From the sequence record PZ445413.1: DNA of 51,285 bases, one strand, 5' to 3'. This document shows, in pieces, positions 29,192-48,760 of the stretch; position 1 is the first letter of the stretch; each line of letters starts with the position of its first letter. The notes beneath the pieces were generated by a model, which did not search any database, was not told the origin of the DNA, and saw only the letters and a program-made list of their open reading frames with translations. The stretch comes from a phage. The translations under genes and the position numbers were made by a program.

Positions 29192-29238
29192 ATAGCACTT
29201 TTTGTTAAAAACCCATATGTTTAGGCGTGTAGTATAGC
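29192..29238 (+). repeat. box cassette upstream of helicase gene
   Basis: ATAGCACTTTTTGTTAAAAA followed by TAGTAT/TATAGC -10-like. Confidence 0.5.
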
Positions 29239-29267
29239 GTCAAACGAACCAACGTTAAAGGTTTAAA

Positions 29268-31268
29268 ATGGCAATTCCAAACATTAAAAAGCAATTATCT
29301 ACATTAGGCGATGCAGTGATAAAGGCGATTCAGGATCGTTTTACCGTTGGCGATATTAAGCCCTATCCTTATCAGTGCGTTGCATACGCTGAGATCGCAA
29401 AGCGACTGAGCAAATACAACGATCCGTTTTTCGTAAAGGCTTCCGTTTCCGCTGGTAAAACAATCATCTTTGCTATGGTTGCCGCGCAGTGTAAAAAGAT
29501 GGGGCTAAAAATGATGGTGCTGGCTCGCCAGGCTGAAATTGTGGATCAGGATTCAGAGGAGATCACAAACTTCGGCGTGCCAAACTCTATCTATTGCGCC
29601 GGACTCAACACCAAAAGCGCATACTTTCCAATTGTAGTTGGTTCCGAGGGAACTGTTGCAAATGGTCTGTTTAAGGCTCTTGGCGATTATGTGCCGCACG
29701 TTATCGGTATTGACGAATGTCACCAGGTCGATTGGGAAGATTTAGCGGATTCAATCGAAAACGAGGAAACATTCGAGCAAATGACCACTAAAAAAGGCGT
29801 TCGCGTCCTGGATGGTGATGGCTCGCAAGTTTTCACAAAAGACGGTGAGCCAATGGAGGGAACCGGACGCAGCCAATACACAATAATCATTCGTGAAATG
29901 CAGCGACGTTGCAAAGAGGCTTACGGGCATGAGTTGCGAATTTTTGGAATGACGGGATCGGAATTTCGCGGGGTTGTCCCAATTCTGGTTGAAGATAAAA
30001 AGCAGAAAGGTTTCTGGCGTGAGCAGGTAACGAACATTGATACCAATTATTTGATCGAATTCGGTTCTGTTGTGCCAACGAATTTTGGCAATGTTGATGG
30101 TCTGGGGTATGACCTTTCAGAGTTCACGGCATCAAGCGAGGATGGCGTTGCAGACTTCGATCAGAAAACACTCCGCAAGATGGAGGAGAAGATCCACAAT
30201 GACGCAACAATGACACAAAAAATTATGGCTCGCGTTCATGAGATCTGCAAAGACAGAAACGGCGTGTTAGTAACTTGCGCTGGTGAGCGACATTGCAAAG
30301 AGGCGGCGGCGGCTTTACCGCTTGGCACAACATACCGCATTATCACTGGCAAGACCGGAGAGAAACAGCGTAAGGAATGGTTACGTGAGGCATACGAGGG
30401 AAAAGTGAAATATATTTTCCAGGTTATGGCCTTAACAACTGGCGTTAACGTTCCGTTTTGGGATACATCCGTTATTCTTCGCAAAATCGGATCGCTCACG
30501 TTGCTGATTCAGCTTTTAGGGCGCGGAATGCGACTGCTTAAAAAATGGCATGTTGAGCAGGGATTCAAGAAAAGCGATCACCTTGTTTTAGACTTTGCCG
30601 GATGCATGGATGAATTAGGGCAACTTTATTTTGATCCTATCCTGGAGCAAGCGCAGTTTCAGCGCCGACACGACAACGGAAAAGATCCGAAACATTGCCC
30701 GATTTGCGGCACTGAAAATTCATTCTACGCTCGCCGCTGCATAAAGGTTGATGAAAATGGTAATCGGTGTGAACACTTCTGGAAATTTAGAGAATGCACA
30801 GATCAGATTGACCCGCGCACGAAAAAAGTTATTGTGCATGGTTGCGGAACAAAAAATGATGTTGTAGCGAGAATTTGCCGTCATTGTGATGTGTCACTAA
30901 TAGACCCTAACGAAAAGTTATCCGGCAAGCACTACACCAAAAACGATTGGTGCAATGTGAAATCGTTCCGTGTCGATATGACGAAAAACCAAAAAGGGAT
31001 CGTGTTCTGCTATGAATTGGAGGCACACGGAGAAACATTTAAGGCTTACGAAAAGTTTTTCCCTGAGTCAGATAGCCAGATCTGCAAAACGAAATGGCGA
31101 CAAACGGCGCTTAAACATATTCCAGATCGCAGAATTGCCGGAATGGTTGCCAGCTATCGCAATGCGCGTAAAATCATGAGTTATGCACATCATATTTTAC
31201 CGCCAGTTAAGGTTACGCATCGCAAAAATGCGAAAGGCGAGGATATTATTTATCATCGGGAGTTTTAA
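29268..31268 (+). CDS. SF2 DEAD/DEAH-box helicase with C-terminal zinc ribbons
   Basis: 666 aa; motif I SAGKT, motif II DECH; C-terminal CxxC pairs. Confidence 0.7.
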   Translation: MAIPNIKKQLSTLGDAVIKAIQDRFTVGDIKPYPYQCVAYAEIAKRLSKYNDPFFVKASVSAGKTIIFAMVAAQCKKMGLKMMVLARQAEIVDQDSEEITNFGVPNSIYCAGLNTKSAYFPIVVGSEGTVANGLFKALGDYVPHVIGIDECHQVDWEDLADSIENEETFEQMTTKKGVRVLDGDGSQVFTKDGEPMEGTGRSQYTIIIREMQRRCKEAYGHELRIFGMTGSEFRGVVPILVEDKKQKGFWREQVTNIDTNYLIEFGSVVPTNFGNVDGLGYDLSEFTASSEDGVADFDQKTLRKMEEKIHNDATMTQKIMARVHEICKDRNGVLVTCAGERHCKEAAAALPLGTTYRIITGKTGEKQRKEWLREAYEGKVKYIFQVMALTTGVNVPFWDTSVILRKIGSLTLLIQLLGRGMRLLKKWHVEQGFKKSDHLVLDFAGCMDELGQLYFDPILEQAQFQRRHDNGKDPKHCPICGTENSFYARRCIKVDENGNRCEHFWKFRECTDQIDPRTKKVIVHGCGTKNDVVARICRHCDVSLIDPNEKLSGKHYTKNDWCNVKSFRVDMTKNQKGIVFCYELEAHGETFKAYEKFFPESDSQICKTKWRQTALKHIPDRRIAGMVASYRNARKIMSYAHHILPPVKVTHRKNAKGEDIIYHREF

Positions 31269-31270
31269 TT

Positions 31271-31702
31271 ATGATTACTGATAAGGGAGATTACCTGGAG
31301 TATTACGAACGCGATCCGAGTGATACCAGGAAAGAGGATTCGCACCAGGTTGATTGCGTGGCGTGGTTGCGCCACCATTACCCGCAACTTTTATTTTGGC
31401 ACACGGTAAATGAGGGGCAAAAGACGATTACCAGCGCATTGAGGGATGAACAAGCCGGATTGCGAAAGGGTGTTTCTGATTTCGTTATCTTGATTGGTGA
31501 TCCGTCTTATAGCGATATGCCATACCCGTTTGCAGCTATTGAATTAAAGCGCGTGAACAAATCTGGAAAGGGAAAGGCATCACCTGTCAGCGACGAACAA
31601 AAGGCTTTTTTGCGTGATGTTCGCCAGCGCGGAGGATTTGCGGCTGTGGCTTATGGGTTCGAACAATTCAAACTGGCTATTGCGGATCTTTTCTATAAAT
31701 AG
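31271..31702 (+). CDS. VRR-NUC domain nuclease
   Basis: 143 aa; GVSDF...IELK (D...ExK) signature; overlaps helicase stop. Confidence 0.6.
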   Translation: MITDKGDYLEYYERDPSDTRKEDSHQVDCVAWLRHHYPQLLFWHTVNEGQKTITSALRDEQAGLRKGVSDFVILIGDPSYSDMPYPFAAIELKRVNKSGKGKASPVSDEQKAFLRDVRQRGGFAAVAYGFEQFKLAIADLFYK

Positions 31703-31743
31703 CATTTTTTGTTAAAACAGGCGCAACGGAATGCGCCATAATG
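31699..31743 (+). repeat. box cassette upstream of dam
   Basis: ATAGCATTTTTTGTTAAAAC with VRR-NUC stop TAG; hairpin ggcgca/tgcgcc; CATAAT. Confidence 0.5.
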
Positions 31744-31773
31744 CACACATCAAGACAAGCGAGGACATTTAAA

Positions 31774-47348: not shown

Positions 47349-47536
47349 TGTGGAATTGGAAAAAGCTGTTGTTAACGTTGGCTATCGCGTTGATTGGTAT
47401 CGTGATCATGGAGTCAGGTTTTACAAACCACTTAGGCGCGGCGGTGCTTGCCCTGGCCTACTCCATACCCGCTTACTATGACGGCAAAAAGGCCGGAGGG
47501 CGTGAAGTGTTCGAATTAATGAAGCGCCGAAAATAG
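47348..47536 (+). CDS. small membrane protein (62 aa)
   Basis: taATG overlap; two hydrophobic helices; stop TAG inside box. Confidence 0.45.
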   Translation: MWNWKKLLLTLAIALIGIVIMESGFTNHLGAAVLALAYSIPAYYDGKKAGGREVFELMKRRK

Positions 47537-47582
47537 CACGAATTGCTAAAACTAAATCAGGAGCATTTGTTATAGTGCTCCT
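47533..47582 (+). repeat. box cassette
   Basis: ATAGCACGAATTGCTAAAAC; hairpin aggagca-tttgtTATAG-tgctcct. Confidence 0.5.
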
Positions 47583-47618
47583 CGTTGAGTTAAGCAACCA
47601 ATCAGAGGAGAAATTAAA

Positions 47619-47897
47619 ATGGCAACCATTCGTAAGCACCTGGTAAACGCATTCGAAAACGTAGGCAAAGCGTATGGCTGGGATGATGGATTGAAAACGC
47701 CATACACGGCACGCCGCCAGGGGTTCAACTCTTTGAGAGAATGGGCGCGTTGCATGGCTGCAAACTATATGCCTGAAAATCATATTCTCATGCCGGATTC
47801 ACTGCTAGAAATGATCGAAGATGCACAGCGCGCAGGTATCCCGCTGACACAACACGATTTCGACGCATACGCAGAGGAGGAAGTAAACGCATGGTAA
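47619..47897 (+). CDS. hypothetical protein
   Basis: 92 aa; leader aaccaatcagaggag-N8-ATG. Confidence 0.45.
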   Translation: MATIRKHLVNAFENVGKAYGWDDGLKTPYTARRQGFNSLREWARCMAANYMPENHILMPDSLLEMIEDAQRAGIPLTQHDFDAYAEEEVNAW

Positions 47898-48103
47898 GCG
47901 ACAAGCCGGAAGCGGTTAAAATCCGCACTGATTATGACGGTTCGCCGTGGATTCAGGCCGGAAAGGTTTACGACGCAACGCTTGAGAAGTCGGGCAAGTT
48001 TGCAGGGTGTTACAAAGCTGTTGGGGAATTAGGTTCCCCATTTTACACAAGACTGAAAAGTTCAGTTCACTTAATTGGTAAAGATTGGGAGATTGTAGAA
48101 TGA
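47891..48103 (+). CDS. small protein, paralog-family member
   Basis: 70 aa; AVKIRTDYDGSPWIQAGKVYDAT motif. Confidence 0.4.
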   Translation: MVSDKPEAVKIRTDYDGSPWIQAGKVYDATLEKSGKFAGCYKAVGELGSPFYTRLKSSVHLIGKDWEIVE

Positions 48104-48714
48104 AATATGTAAAACCAACAACGGGCGGTTTCGGTTACACTGCTGGCAAACTATATCCGATCCTAATGACCTATGAGGGCGGTCAGATGGTGATAAGAAA
48201 TGACAAAGGTGTTACGCAAATTATTCGCGGCGACGGCAAGCCATCACTACGATTAGAGCGAGGCGGAAAGTTTGAGGTTGTGGATATTCCAGAACCTGGA
48301 GAGGCTCAAGAGTACGCAGTTGAAACAGCAAAAAAGACAAGCGAGGCTCTACGCGAGCACGTAAAAGTGATTGTGAAAGATTCTATTGTTAGCGCGGCGT
48401 TACCTGGCGGCGTGCTTCATAAGGCAGTAAACGAAAGCGATCACTTGCGCGCGGCGCGACAAATCGCCGTAAACGCAACAGAGCTTGCAAGCGAGGTTGC
48501 ATTAGGCCGATATGATGCAAGTCTCTATATGCGACTTGAAAAGGCAGAGCGTGAGGCGGCGCAGCACAAAGCGGATTGCATCAAAGCGGAGGCGATTGTT
48601 GATCAGCTTTATGACATATTCCCGCAGGTGCGCAATCCAGAGCAATTGGTTGCAGCGGTGCGCAGTTCGAAAATCTTTGCTGATGCGTTTTTGGAACTGC
48701 AAAAGGTTAAATAG
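48100..48714 (+). CDS. paralog-family N-terminal module fused to helical C-terminal domain
   Basis: ATG 48100 overlapping previous stop; MKYVKPTTGGFGYTAGKLYPIL; stop TAG inside box. Confidence 0.45.
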   Translation: MKYVKPTTGGFGYTAGKLYPILMTYEGGQMVIRNDKGVTQIIRGDGKPSLRLERGGKFEVVDIPEPGEAQEYAVETAKKTSEALREHVKVIVKDSIVSAALPGGVLHKAVNESDHLRAARQIAVNATELASEVALGRYDASLYMRLEKAEREAAQHKADCIKAEAIVDQLYDIFPQVRNPEQLVAAVRSSKIFADAFLELQKVK

Positions 48715-48760
48715 CACTTTTTGTTAAAACTTCCGCGAGGACATTTGTTAAAGTGTCCTC
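48711..48760 (+). repeat. box cassette
   Basis: ATAGCACTTTTTGTTAAAAC; hairpin gaggaca-tttgttaaag-tgtcctc. Confidence 0.5.

Follow-up and report, generated by a model that had tools for sequence, protein, structure and literature searches.

The stretch of DNA analysed here, referred to as the window (51,285 nucleotides, sequence record PZ445413.1), represents a T1-like phage genome, complete and circularly permuted, that spans from the start codon of terL to the end of terS. Its early region is 98% identical over 92% to Escherichia phage vB_EcoS_W011D (Drexlerviridae, Tempevirinae, Changchunvirus). Plus-strand genes run from about 42.5 kb to the window end and on to 20 kb, forming the rightward early arm and then the structural genes, and the interval from 20.6 to 42 kb holds the leftward early arm and the replication genes. 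The subject of this study is a cassette repeated at gene junctions of these regions, in which an asymmetric 20-bp box is followed by a −10 hexamer and, in most copies, by a hairpin. All 20 coordinates listed in an earlier reading of the letters alone (the sequence-only reading) carry the box, the minus-strand copies having been given there by their low coordinate. The formula written for it was right in that the box is real but wrong in its N4: the literal pattern ATAGCAC-N4-TTGTTAAAAC matches one site only in the window, and the true motif is ATAGCAC-N3-TTG-N-TAAAA(C). With up to three mismatches the corrected motif finds 25 sites in the window, against 0-5 in each of 30 shuffles. The window holds about 24 copies, 4-5 beyond those listed earlier; the additional ones are at 22147 (+) and 28751 (−) (variant ACAGCACAAATAGCTAAAA), at 15871 (+) in a related form, at 33149 (+) inside a gene and, weakly, at 150 (−). 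Co-orientation with the early genes stood up fully, since 16/16 copies at 29-49 kb share the direction of the following gene; in the same 16 copies a Shine-Dalgarno (SD) sequence and a start codon lie about 75-86 nt past the box start.

On the plus strand, cassettes stand before the genes of an ATP-dependent helicase (29192..29268; box 29192-29211, −10 TAGTAT 29230-29235, predicted +1 ~29242, start codon 29268) and a Dam methyltransferase (31699..31774; box 31699-31718, spacer hairpin 31720-31737, −10 CATAAT 31737-31742, predicted +1 ~31749, start codon 31774), and at 32862..32938 (box 32862-32881, hairpin 32883-32900 with a GAAA loop, −10 CATAAT 32900-32905, start codon 32938). The helicase copy, in a region aligned in 7 genomes, has a weak hairpin only and no co-oriented upstream gene. 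The putative first promoter of the leftward early arm, at 41857..41942 on the minus strand (box 41923-41942, −10 TATAGT 41899-41904, start codon 41857), has neither a hairpin nor an upstream gene. The same strand carries cassettes at 41507..41582 (box 41563-41582, hairpin 41530-41560 around −10 CATAAT 41539-41544, start codon 41507), 40382..40460 (box 40441-40460, hairpin 40412-40432 around the TGn extended −10 TATAAT 40418-40423, start codon 40382), 39096..39172 (box 39153-39172, spacer hairpin 39134-39153, −10 CATAAT 39129-39134, start codon 39096), 38362..38435, before a DNA helicase gene (box 38416-38435, hairpin 38379-38406 with its arms flanking −10 TATAAT 38391-38396, start codon 38362), and 36186..36267 (box 36248-36267, −10 TATATT 36224-36229, start codon 36186). 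The rightward early arm has seven on the plus strand: 43686..43761 (box 43686-43705, hairpin 43706-43740 around −10 TATAGT 43724-43729, start codon 43761); 44243..44318 (box 44243-44262, spacer hairpin 44266-44281, −10 CATAAT 44281-44286, start codon 44318); 44497..44570 (box 44497-44516, its 3′ end degenerate, TAAGC; hairpin 44514-44546 around −10 TATCAT 44535-44540, start codon 44570); 45538..45614 (box 45538-45557, hairpin 45566-45587 around −10 TATAGT 45576-45581, start codon 45614); 46531..46608 (box 46531-46550, spacer hairpin 46549-46569, −10 TATAAT 46569-46574, start codon 46608); 47533..47619 (box 47533-47552, hairpin 47550-47591 around −10 TATAGT 47571-47576, start codon 47619), and 48711..48787 (box 48711-48730, hairpin 48730-48767 around −10 TAAAGT 48749-48754, start codon 48787).

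The anatomy of the cassette was derived from a family sample of 109 copies with at most two mismatches, taken from the window, T1, Rtp, Rogue1, KP36 and TLS, six genomes that cover the Tunavirinae, Tempevirinae, Braunvirinae, Rogunavirinae and Webervirus. The box is made of two invariant blocks, GCAC and TGyTAAA, placed one helical turn apart without dyad symmetry, an arrangement that fits recognition by a monomer with two reading heads. As had been noticed from the window, the upstream gene often stops at the TAG within the box (42/109 copies), and in 18 more copies it ends at the box edge. With offsets counted from the box's first A, the mean −10 score along the aligned copies rises to +3.8 at offset 38 and stays below −2 at every other position. 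A −10 hexamer begins at offset 37-39 in 101/109 copies, the gap being 18 bp in 85, 17 bp in 8 and 19 bp in 8. The same was found in IMG/VR contigs: 134/158 unique copies from multi-copy (T1-like) loci have a −10 at offset 38, and chance single matches in unrelated contigs give a flat distribution of offsets with no preference. Since the position of the −10 is fixed, the box spans −50 to −31, and the fixed distance between them implies that box and −10 act jointly on the DNA as one promoter, in support of the promoter-cassette reading.

The spacing of 21-23 nt from TTGTTA to the −10 given in the sequence-only reading is confirmed at 22 ± 1 nt (TTGyTA, across copies), but the coupling is much tighter than was stated; at that distance TTGTTA is, as proposed there, too far from the −10 to serve as a −35 element. 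No usable −35 is found 16-18 nt upstream of the −10 either, the best match being at most 3/6 in 85/101 copies. Among the 85 copies that score at offset 38, A−11 is invariant, T−7 is 99% conserved and G−14 is present in 69; a TGn extended −10 occurs in 44/101, and over half of the promoters lack both TGn and a −35. The base 7 nt past the hexamer is A in 72/85 copies and lies inside CATCGAAAC, where +1 is predicted; the conserved leader described earlier is thus borne out, with the +1 A in CATCGAAAC..GAGGA.

The box corresponds to the marbox, the target of the host regulators MarA, SoxS and Rob, whose consensus is AYNGCACNNWNNRYYAAAYN (AYnGCACnnWnnRYYAAAYn) (PMC2064960). Without its final N this consensus matches the window 23 times at one mismatch or less, against 1.31 expected, and 0/100 shuffles reach 23. 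The motif GCAHWWWWTGYYAAA, derived from chromatin immunoprecipitation (ChIP) (PMC6900184), matches 24 times, 15 of them perfectly, against 2.86 expected. The positions at which phage boxes vary (T/A at 10, C/T at 14, T/C at 2) are the degenerate positions of the marbox consensus. On a matrix derived from 70 sites in Salmonella to which MarA, SoxS, Rob or RamA bind in vivo (PMC10268841), phage boxes score 14.4-18.1 bits, whereas the ChIP sites themselves have a median of 11.1 and a maximum of 17.9; at 14 bits or more there are 27 sites in the window and 0 in 50 kb of E. coli chromosome. Several bound host 15-mers, among them GCATTTTTTGCTAAA, GCACTGATTGTTAAA and GCACAATTAGCTAAA, lie within 0-1 nt of phage cores. 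In the reverse direction, a matrix made from the phage boxes and applied to 601-bp regions of E. coli K-12 picks out the marboxes of micF (11.2) and marRAB (11.4) as single top matches, the next-best scores being −5.4 and −11.5, respectively, and the maximum in 50 kb of E. coli being 6.8. The plausible inaA site ranks third and the fumC site first but with a negative score, and in the nfo and sodA regions no marbox was identified among the matches; the phage-derived matrix is too stringent for ranking weaker host marboxes.

Orientation and spacing agree as well. All copies with a −10 at offset 37-39 read along transcription, with GCAC distal and YYAAA proximal to the −10. Class II promoters carry a marbox that is forward (also PMC6900184), overlaps the −35 and is centred between −36 and −55 (PMC12052159); the phage box is centred at about −40.5, inside that range. 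At micF the marbox ACAGCACTGAATGTCAAAAC is forward and is followed by 18 bp and TAGAAT, at inaA 18 bp separate it from TATAGT, and at fumC the gap to the −10 is 18-19 bp. In the cryo-electron microscopy structure of Rob, RNA polymerase and micF, Rob contacts G−47 and A−45 of GCAC, and σ region 4 is kept off the −35 (PMC9178005). When the −10 is numbered −12 to −7, the GCAC of the phage box has its G at −47 and its A at −45; G−47, C−46 and A−45 are invariant in the family (2.0 bits), and C−44 has 1.68 bits. The cassettes therefore share with the class II host promoters (micF, inaA, fumC, lpxC P2) an asymmetric 20-bp marbox with GCAC and YYAAA one helical turn apart, its forward placement over the −35 position, the 18-19 bp to the −10 and a poor or absent −35. 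They differ in number, with about 20 in a 50-kb genome and 0 comparable sites in 50 kb of host chromosome, in being much nearer the consensus than most host sites, and in that an RNA hairpin is interleaved in many copies, which are also fused to the stop codon upstream. Judged from motif and geometry, we assign the box with high confidence to the class II marbox type of promoter; that it binds a factor, one of two possibilities raised earlier, is most likely.

The box itself is already known, its function having been unexplained; the marbox reading and the coupling to a −10 are new here. A 21-nt direct repeat (DR) of phage TLS, aaATAGCACnnnTTGnTAAAA (DR1-DR18), was published in 2024 with its function left open, and its authors noted similar repeats in T1, Rtp and Rogue1, suggested stoperators, enhancer sites or upstream promoter (UP) elements, and named its function as one of the questions that T1-like phages still pose (PMC11447400). 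The sequence-only reading, which knew of no such description for T1-like phages, is not supported on this point. The TLS repeats are the same element as the window box: they have the consensus aaATAGCACnnnTTGnTAAAA, are co-oriented with transcription and lie about 76 nt before start codons, and their T/G/A subtypes in the central triplet are a further likeness; the box studied here shows that consensus, that co-orientation with genes and a start-codon distance with its mode at 74-78 nt. The TLS paper reported neither the fixed −10 nor the hairpins, and it made no mention of a match to the marbox (PMC11447400). In the literature searched, which is incomplete, no paper was found that links the marbox, MarA or SoxS to T1-like phages or the Drexlerviridae.

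Taking the sequence evidence together, we propose that the cassettes are class II MarA/SoxS/Rob-dependent σ70 promoters, and we think it rather probable, though far from assured, that host Rob, MarA or SoxS drive them. In the model, each cassette would open with the upstream gene's stop codon, for which the TAG of the box often serves. The asymmetric box at about −50 to −31 would serve as a consensus marbox for the AraC-family monomers MarA, SoxS and Rob, with RamA as a further binder in Klebsiella and Salmonella, and the −10 hexamer (with TGn in ~40% of copies) would follow without a usable −35. Lying over the −35 position, the activator would replace or occlude the binding of σ region 4, contacting the C-terminal domain of the α subunit (α-CTD) and σ region 4 as at micF and inaA. 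Transcription would start at the A in CATCGAAAC and run through an A/C-rich leader to an SD sequence and start codon about 75 nt past the box start. The hairpins would be a separate, optional layer acting in the sense read-through RNA, where they would attenuate upstream transcripts or stabilise 3′ ends, and they would be confined to the only unconstrained positions, the spacer and the discriminator. T1-like phages would encode no activator of their own, host RNA polymerase being recruited to about 20 early and replication promoters through host regulators. Rob would be the default candidate, because it is constitutive and abundant (PMC9178005), and MarA and SoxS would take over under stress.

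The early region shows no enrichment of canonical σ70 promoters (28 against 31.8 expected). A perfect consensus promoter, TTGACA-16-TATAAT (12/12), at 42517-42544 (+) is the sole one in the 20 kb scanned; it heads the rightward early arm, matches P01 of TLS and a promoter annotated in KP36 (500-528), requires no activator and is probably the immediate-early promoter, by which the rightward arm would be opened in the model. The ChIP-derived matrix gives 14.5 bits to a reverse marbox-like site, GCACAAAAAGACAAA, at 42471-42485 (−); it lies some 73 bp upstream of where this promoter is predicted to start, at the edge of the class I position range.

The involvement of host factors is favoured because (i) the motif is identical in five deeply diverged lineages, which infect Escherichia, Shigella, Salmonella, Klebsiella and relatives; (ii) all these hosts carry MarA, SoxS and Rob (PMC10268841), and (iii) no MarA/SoxS/Rob-like open reading frame (ORF) was detected by phmmer or hmmsearch against all ORFs of the six genomes. 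A MarA query, validated against PDB 1BL0, gave 126 tblastn hits in 50,697 phage records; none of the 25 records listed is from a T1-like phage, and the ten organism names that accompany the hits do not include Klebsiella. A Pfam scan of the 86 window proteins covered the best 25 of 53 families, which leaves room for a weak AraC-type match. A capsid search for T1-like phages by host returned almost only Enterobacteriaceae, plus doubtful labels (Campylobacter, Stenotrophomonas), and gave no clean contrast.

Several points weigh against dependence on host regulators. Without stress, cells have little MarA and SoxS and keep most of their Rob in inactive aggregates (PMC10268841), so that obligate dependence would be risky for a fast lytic phage. 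The 44% of promoters with a TGn extended −10 might need no activator. Constraint on the phage box exceeds that on host marboxes, with more than 1.6 bits at 15/20 positions; three of these, 3, 11 and 12, are N in the marbox consensus. Such constraint could mean selection for maximal affinity together with the stop codon embedded in the box, or else another binder of higher specificity. At position 19 the box has A instead of Y, as does micF. As for the hairpin layer, only 11% of the strong hairpins are followed by at least 5 T in the next 8 nt, as an intrinsic terminator would be, and termination by the hairpins is thus not assured; the exceptions, at 28695-28728 and 1598-1618, are true terminators.

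Such a binder could be a protein of the phage itself, activating or repressing the promoters in a stoperator-like or MotA-like manner, which we consider unlikely. Candidates are the helix-turn-helix (HTH) regulator at 28735-29178, a homologue of T1 gp23, the N-terminus of the phosphoesterase at 33429-34550, or small early proteins. The regulator is conserved in every genome examined, adjoins a box and seems to have a conventional σ70 promoter of its own (P57 in TLS), such as would be required of an immediate-early activator; for the phosphoesterase N-terminus there is a match to Sigma70_r4_2 (E 1.3e-5), and the box, conserved more strongly than host marboxes, contains TTGyTA. The two HTH proteins had been put forward in the sequence-only reading as proteins whose binding should be tried, a proposal that lost ground here: one has a single Cro/NinH/YdaS-like HTH with sub-threshold scores and no match in a PDB sequence search, and such proteins are usually dimers on dyad-symmetric sites, whereas the other is σ-region-4-like and the asymmetric box, devoid of dyad symmetry, fits a host monomer with two HTHs. 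Moreover, the motif is identical where phage proteins have diverged widely, for which a host factor would be the better fit; the agreement with the marbox in sequence, degeneracy, orientation and spacing would need coincidence or mimicry, and if the early promoters required a phage protein, they would be silent when infection begins.

Alternatively, the box could work with no activator at all, as a specific UP element or displaced −35 surrogate contacted by α-CTD or σ70, so that the cassettes would be strong constitutive extended −10 promoters. The box is indeed A/T-rich at −43 to −32, the G at −14 in 69/85 copies and TGn in 44/101 suit such promoters, and the UP-element idea was raised by the TLS authors (PMC11447400). 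The conserved G, C, A and C at −47 to −44 are nonetheless unlike UP elements, TTGyTA at 22 nt from the −10 is beyond the 16-18 nt window for σ region 4, and over half of the promoters lack both TGn and a −35, for which reasons this possibility appears quite unlikely to us.

Resemblance to the promoter-early-stem-loop (PeSL) cassettes of T4-type phages had been pointed out, and anatomically it is good. In a PeSL the upstream stop codon is followed by an upstream element, a stem-loop between −35 and −10 or over the −10, and then SD and start codon (PMC2839356); here too the stem-loop is interleaved with the promoter between the upstream stop and the SD and start codon. The PeSLs of RB49 and phi1 are, as here, present in many copies in regions of small early genes (PMC2839356). 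PeSLs, however, have consensus σ70 −35 and −10 elements with an AT-rich upstream region and no activator site (PMC2839356); in the present cassettes the −35 match is at most 3/6 in 85/101 copies and the upstream element is a specific, GC-containing box. PeSL-to-PeSL recombination and mini-circles have been demonstrated (PMC2839356), and the cassettes could likewise, in addition, be recombination linkers by which T1-like phages exchange gene modules. Beside the common anatomy, 3/10 ends of homology blocks against W011D, and 35/189 ends over eight relatives, fall in cassettes, 3-fold the whole-sequence expectation (p = 9e-9), the eight relatives not being independent samples. But the breakpoint alignment proposed in the sequence-only reading, once run, gave a block-end rate of 0.0256 per nt in cassettes, equal to the 0.0274 at junctions without cassettes (inside genes the rate is 0.0053 per nt, window against eight relatives), and 0/5 segments replaced relative to W011D, a small sample, are bounded by cassettes on both sides. 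With equal breakpoint rates and no cassette-bounded segment, the PeSL-like anatomy is supported and a special role in recombination is not; we regard the linkers as improbable.

The GC-rich hairpin described after the box is also real, the 43 nt downstream folding at a mean minimum free energy (MFE) of −11 kcal/mol with a mean z of −2.7 against shuffles, and at −6 kcal/mol or better in 73% of copies. Its register varies, the stem lying in the spacer or its arms flanking the −10. Copies at whose box a co-oriented ORF ends have the stronger hairpins (MFE −11.8 against −7.7 kcal/mol, p = 0.0015), and at the first promoters of units hairpins are weak or absent. The sense RNA folds 2.7 kcal/mol more stably than the antisense (p = 3e-8), and GNRA or UNCG tetraloops occur in 9/30 sense loops against 0/27 antisense loops. 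Sense bias, tetraloops and association with an upstream gene together indicate that the hairpins belong to the read-through RNA of the upstream gene and not to the promoter mechanism. Most likely they attenuate upstream transcripts and/or stabilise 3′ ends; in vivo, a PeSL stem-loop placed likewise was shown to terminate transcription (PMC2839356). No match to an Rfam family was found. Strong hairpins are far fewer in Rtp (Braunvirinae) and Rogue1 (Rogunavirinae) than in T1, TLS, KP36 and the window, with box and −10 kept, so the hairpin layer is lineage-dependent. On the minus strand, the spacer hairpins 31720-31737, 32883-32900 and 44265-44282 are followed by TGTTTTAAC, the reverse complement of the box end, and look like intrinsic terminators for antisense transcription.

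That box and hairpin both act in read-through RNA, as nut/boxA-like antitermination, RNase E processing or 3′ untranslated-region elements with the −10 being secondary, would accord with the transcription of the box as the 3′ end of the upstream message, with the sense bias and tetraloops just described and with a weak resemblance of GCACTTTTTG to the rrn/lambda boxA (GCTCTTTA), but it is very improbable, since the box-to-−10 distance is fixed while the hairpin register floats, which points to a promoter constraint at the DNA level, copies with no upstream gene keep box and −10 and lose the hairpin, loop sequences are not conserved, and no Rfam family matches.

Other known elements were compared and rejected. 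Consensus UP elements are A/T tracts read via the minor groove; as tracts at −59 to −38 with no specific G/C they disagree with the invariant G−47, C−46 and A−45 of the box. The σ54 consensus has GG at −24 and GC at −12 (TGGCAC-N5-TTGCW), and the box, TAGCAC-N3-TTGYT, has AG for GG, is 2 nt too short and stands at a fixed distance from a σ70 −10. The MotA box of T4 middle promoters is centred at −30, 11-13 bp from the −10, and TTGyTAAA ends at about −33, with the box end 18 bp from the −10. T4 middle promoters, with their MotA box and σ appropriation by AsiA, do resemble the cassettes in that an activator box containing TGCT replaces the −35 beside a good −10; unlike them, the phage has no MotA or AsiA relative that was noticed, and the activator proposed here would be host-encoded. 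The stoperators of mycobacteriophage L5 are, like the box, many asymmetric sites along a phage genome oriented with transcription, but in lysogens the phage repressor occupies them and elongation is blocked, whereas T1-like phages are virulent and their boxes keep a fixed distance to a −10. IHF, Fis, CRP, FNR, Lrp and boxA/nut motifs, compared by eye, were rejected on spacing or invariant bases.

Returning to activation by host regulators, we see an even chance that the Drexlerviridae as a family have wired their early and replication transcription to the stress regulators MarA, SoxS and Rob (and RamA) of the host through about 20 class II marbox promoters per genome; on sequence evidence, those of the present genome would be activator-dependent promoters of the MarA/SoxS/Rob type borne by a virulent phage. 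If true, this would explain early expression in phages without an RNA polymerase or a σ factor and almost without canonical promoters, and the development of the phage would hinge on stress signals of the host, or be adjusted by them, examples being bile salts, salicylate, superoxide and antibiotics. As the phage DNA replicates, its hundreds to thousands of top-affinity marboxes could in turn titrate the regulators off efflux and porin genes. A very common group of enterobacterial phages, including therapeutic Klebsiella phages, would be tied to the mar/sox/rob/ram network of antibiotic tolerance, with possible consequences for phage-antibiotic combinations. The marbox reading is besides a concrete and cheaply testable answer to the question of function left by the 2024 TLS re-annotation, and the cassettes would be compact, portable promoter parts with a defined, predicted start site.

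There are further copies in the window. The variant box ACAGCACAAATAGCTAAACA, not listed earlier, belongs to a cassette at 22147..22221 (+) (box 22147-22166, hairpin 22175-22198 around −10 TATAAT 22184-22189) that leads to the start of the Erf gene at 22221. Another variant not listed earlier, ACAGCACAAATAGCTAAAAC, is at 28669..28751 (−): its box, 28732-28751, overlaps the end of the regulator gene, and its −10, TATCAT 28709-28714, lies in the hairpin 28695-28728 with a T-run, ahead of the primase start. A terminator is annotated at the corresponding site in T1. In the window the regulator gene's intrinsic terminator (−) encloses the −10 of the putative primase promoter in its loop, so that both share the same 35 nt. 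An isolated minus-strand cor-like gene has its own cassette at 20584..20658 (−) (box 20639-20658, −10 TATAGT 20616-20621, start codon 20584), with no hairpin. The intragenic copy ATCGCACTAATTGCTAAATA at 33149..33192 (+), with TAGTAT at offset 38, is conserved in T1 (40308) and is possibly an internal promoter for the phosphoesterase gene at 33429.

In the late region two copies are antisense, one toward the major tail gene at 9903..9946 (−) (box 9927-9946, TAGAGT at offset 38; conserved in T1 at 18850, −) and one toward the scaffold gene at 6152..6195 (−) (box 6176-6195, weak −10 TAGAGC; conserved in T1 at 15086 (−) and TLS at 15042 (−)). These may be early antisense promoters opposing late genes. 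An atypical copy after terL, at 1566..1618 (+), has its box at 1566-1585 and TATAAT at 1591-1596, which begins 5 nt past the 20-bp box (six when counted from the 19-mer); a strong intrinsic terminator follows directly, with its hairpin at 1598-1618 and a T-run, and the KP36 annotation places a promoter and a stem-loop at the equivalent site. The variant ACAGCACAAAAGGTTAAAAG at 15871..15890 (+) has no −10, lies 3 nt before the start codon of the 1141-amino-acid large tail protein, with no space for a promoter, and is conserved in TLS (DR8).

Two observations concern the genes of the HTH proteins. The regulator and helicase genes are divergent (29179-29267), and the regulator start codon is about 12 nt from the box. 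A candidate promoter of the regulator, TTAACG-16-TATACT, lies at 29258-29231 (−), with the same layout in TLS (P57); its −10 overlaps the helicase −10, TAGTAT 29230-29235, base for base, and the two promoters should therefore compete. The metallophosphoesterase at 33429-34550 (+), annotated ‘DNA repair exonuclease’, carries an N-terminal HTH that matches σ70 region 4 (PF08281, E 1.3e-5, just under the cutoff); such a fusion of an HTH with a phosphoesterase is unusual, is conserved in the family and was noted too in the KP36 annotation.

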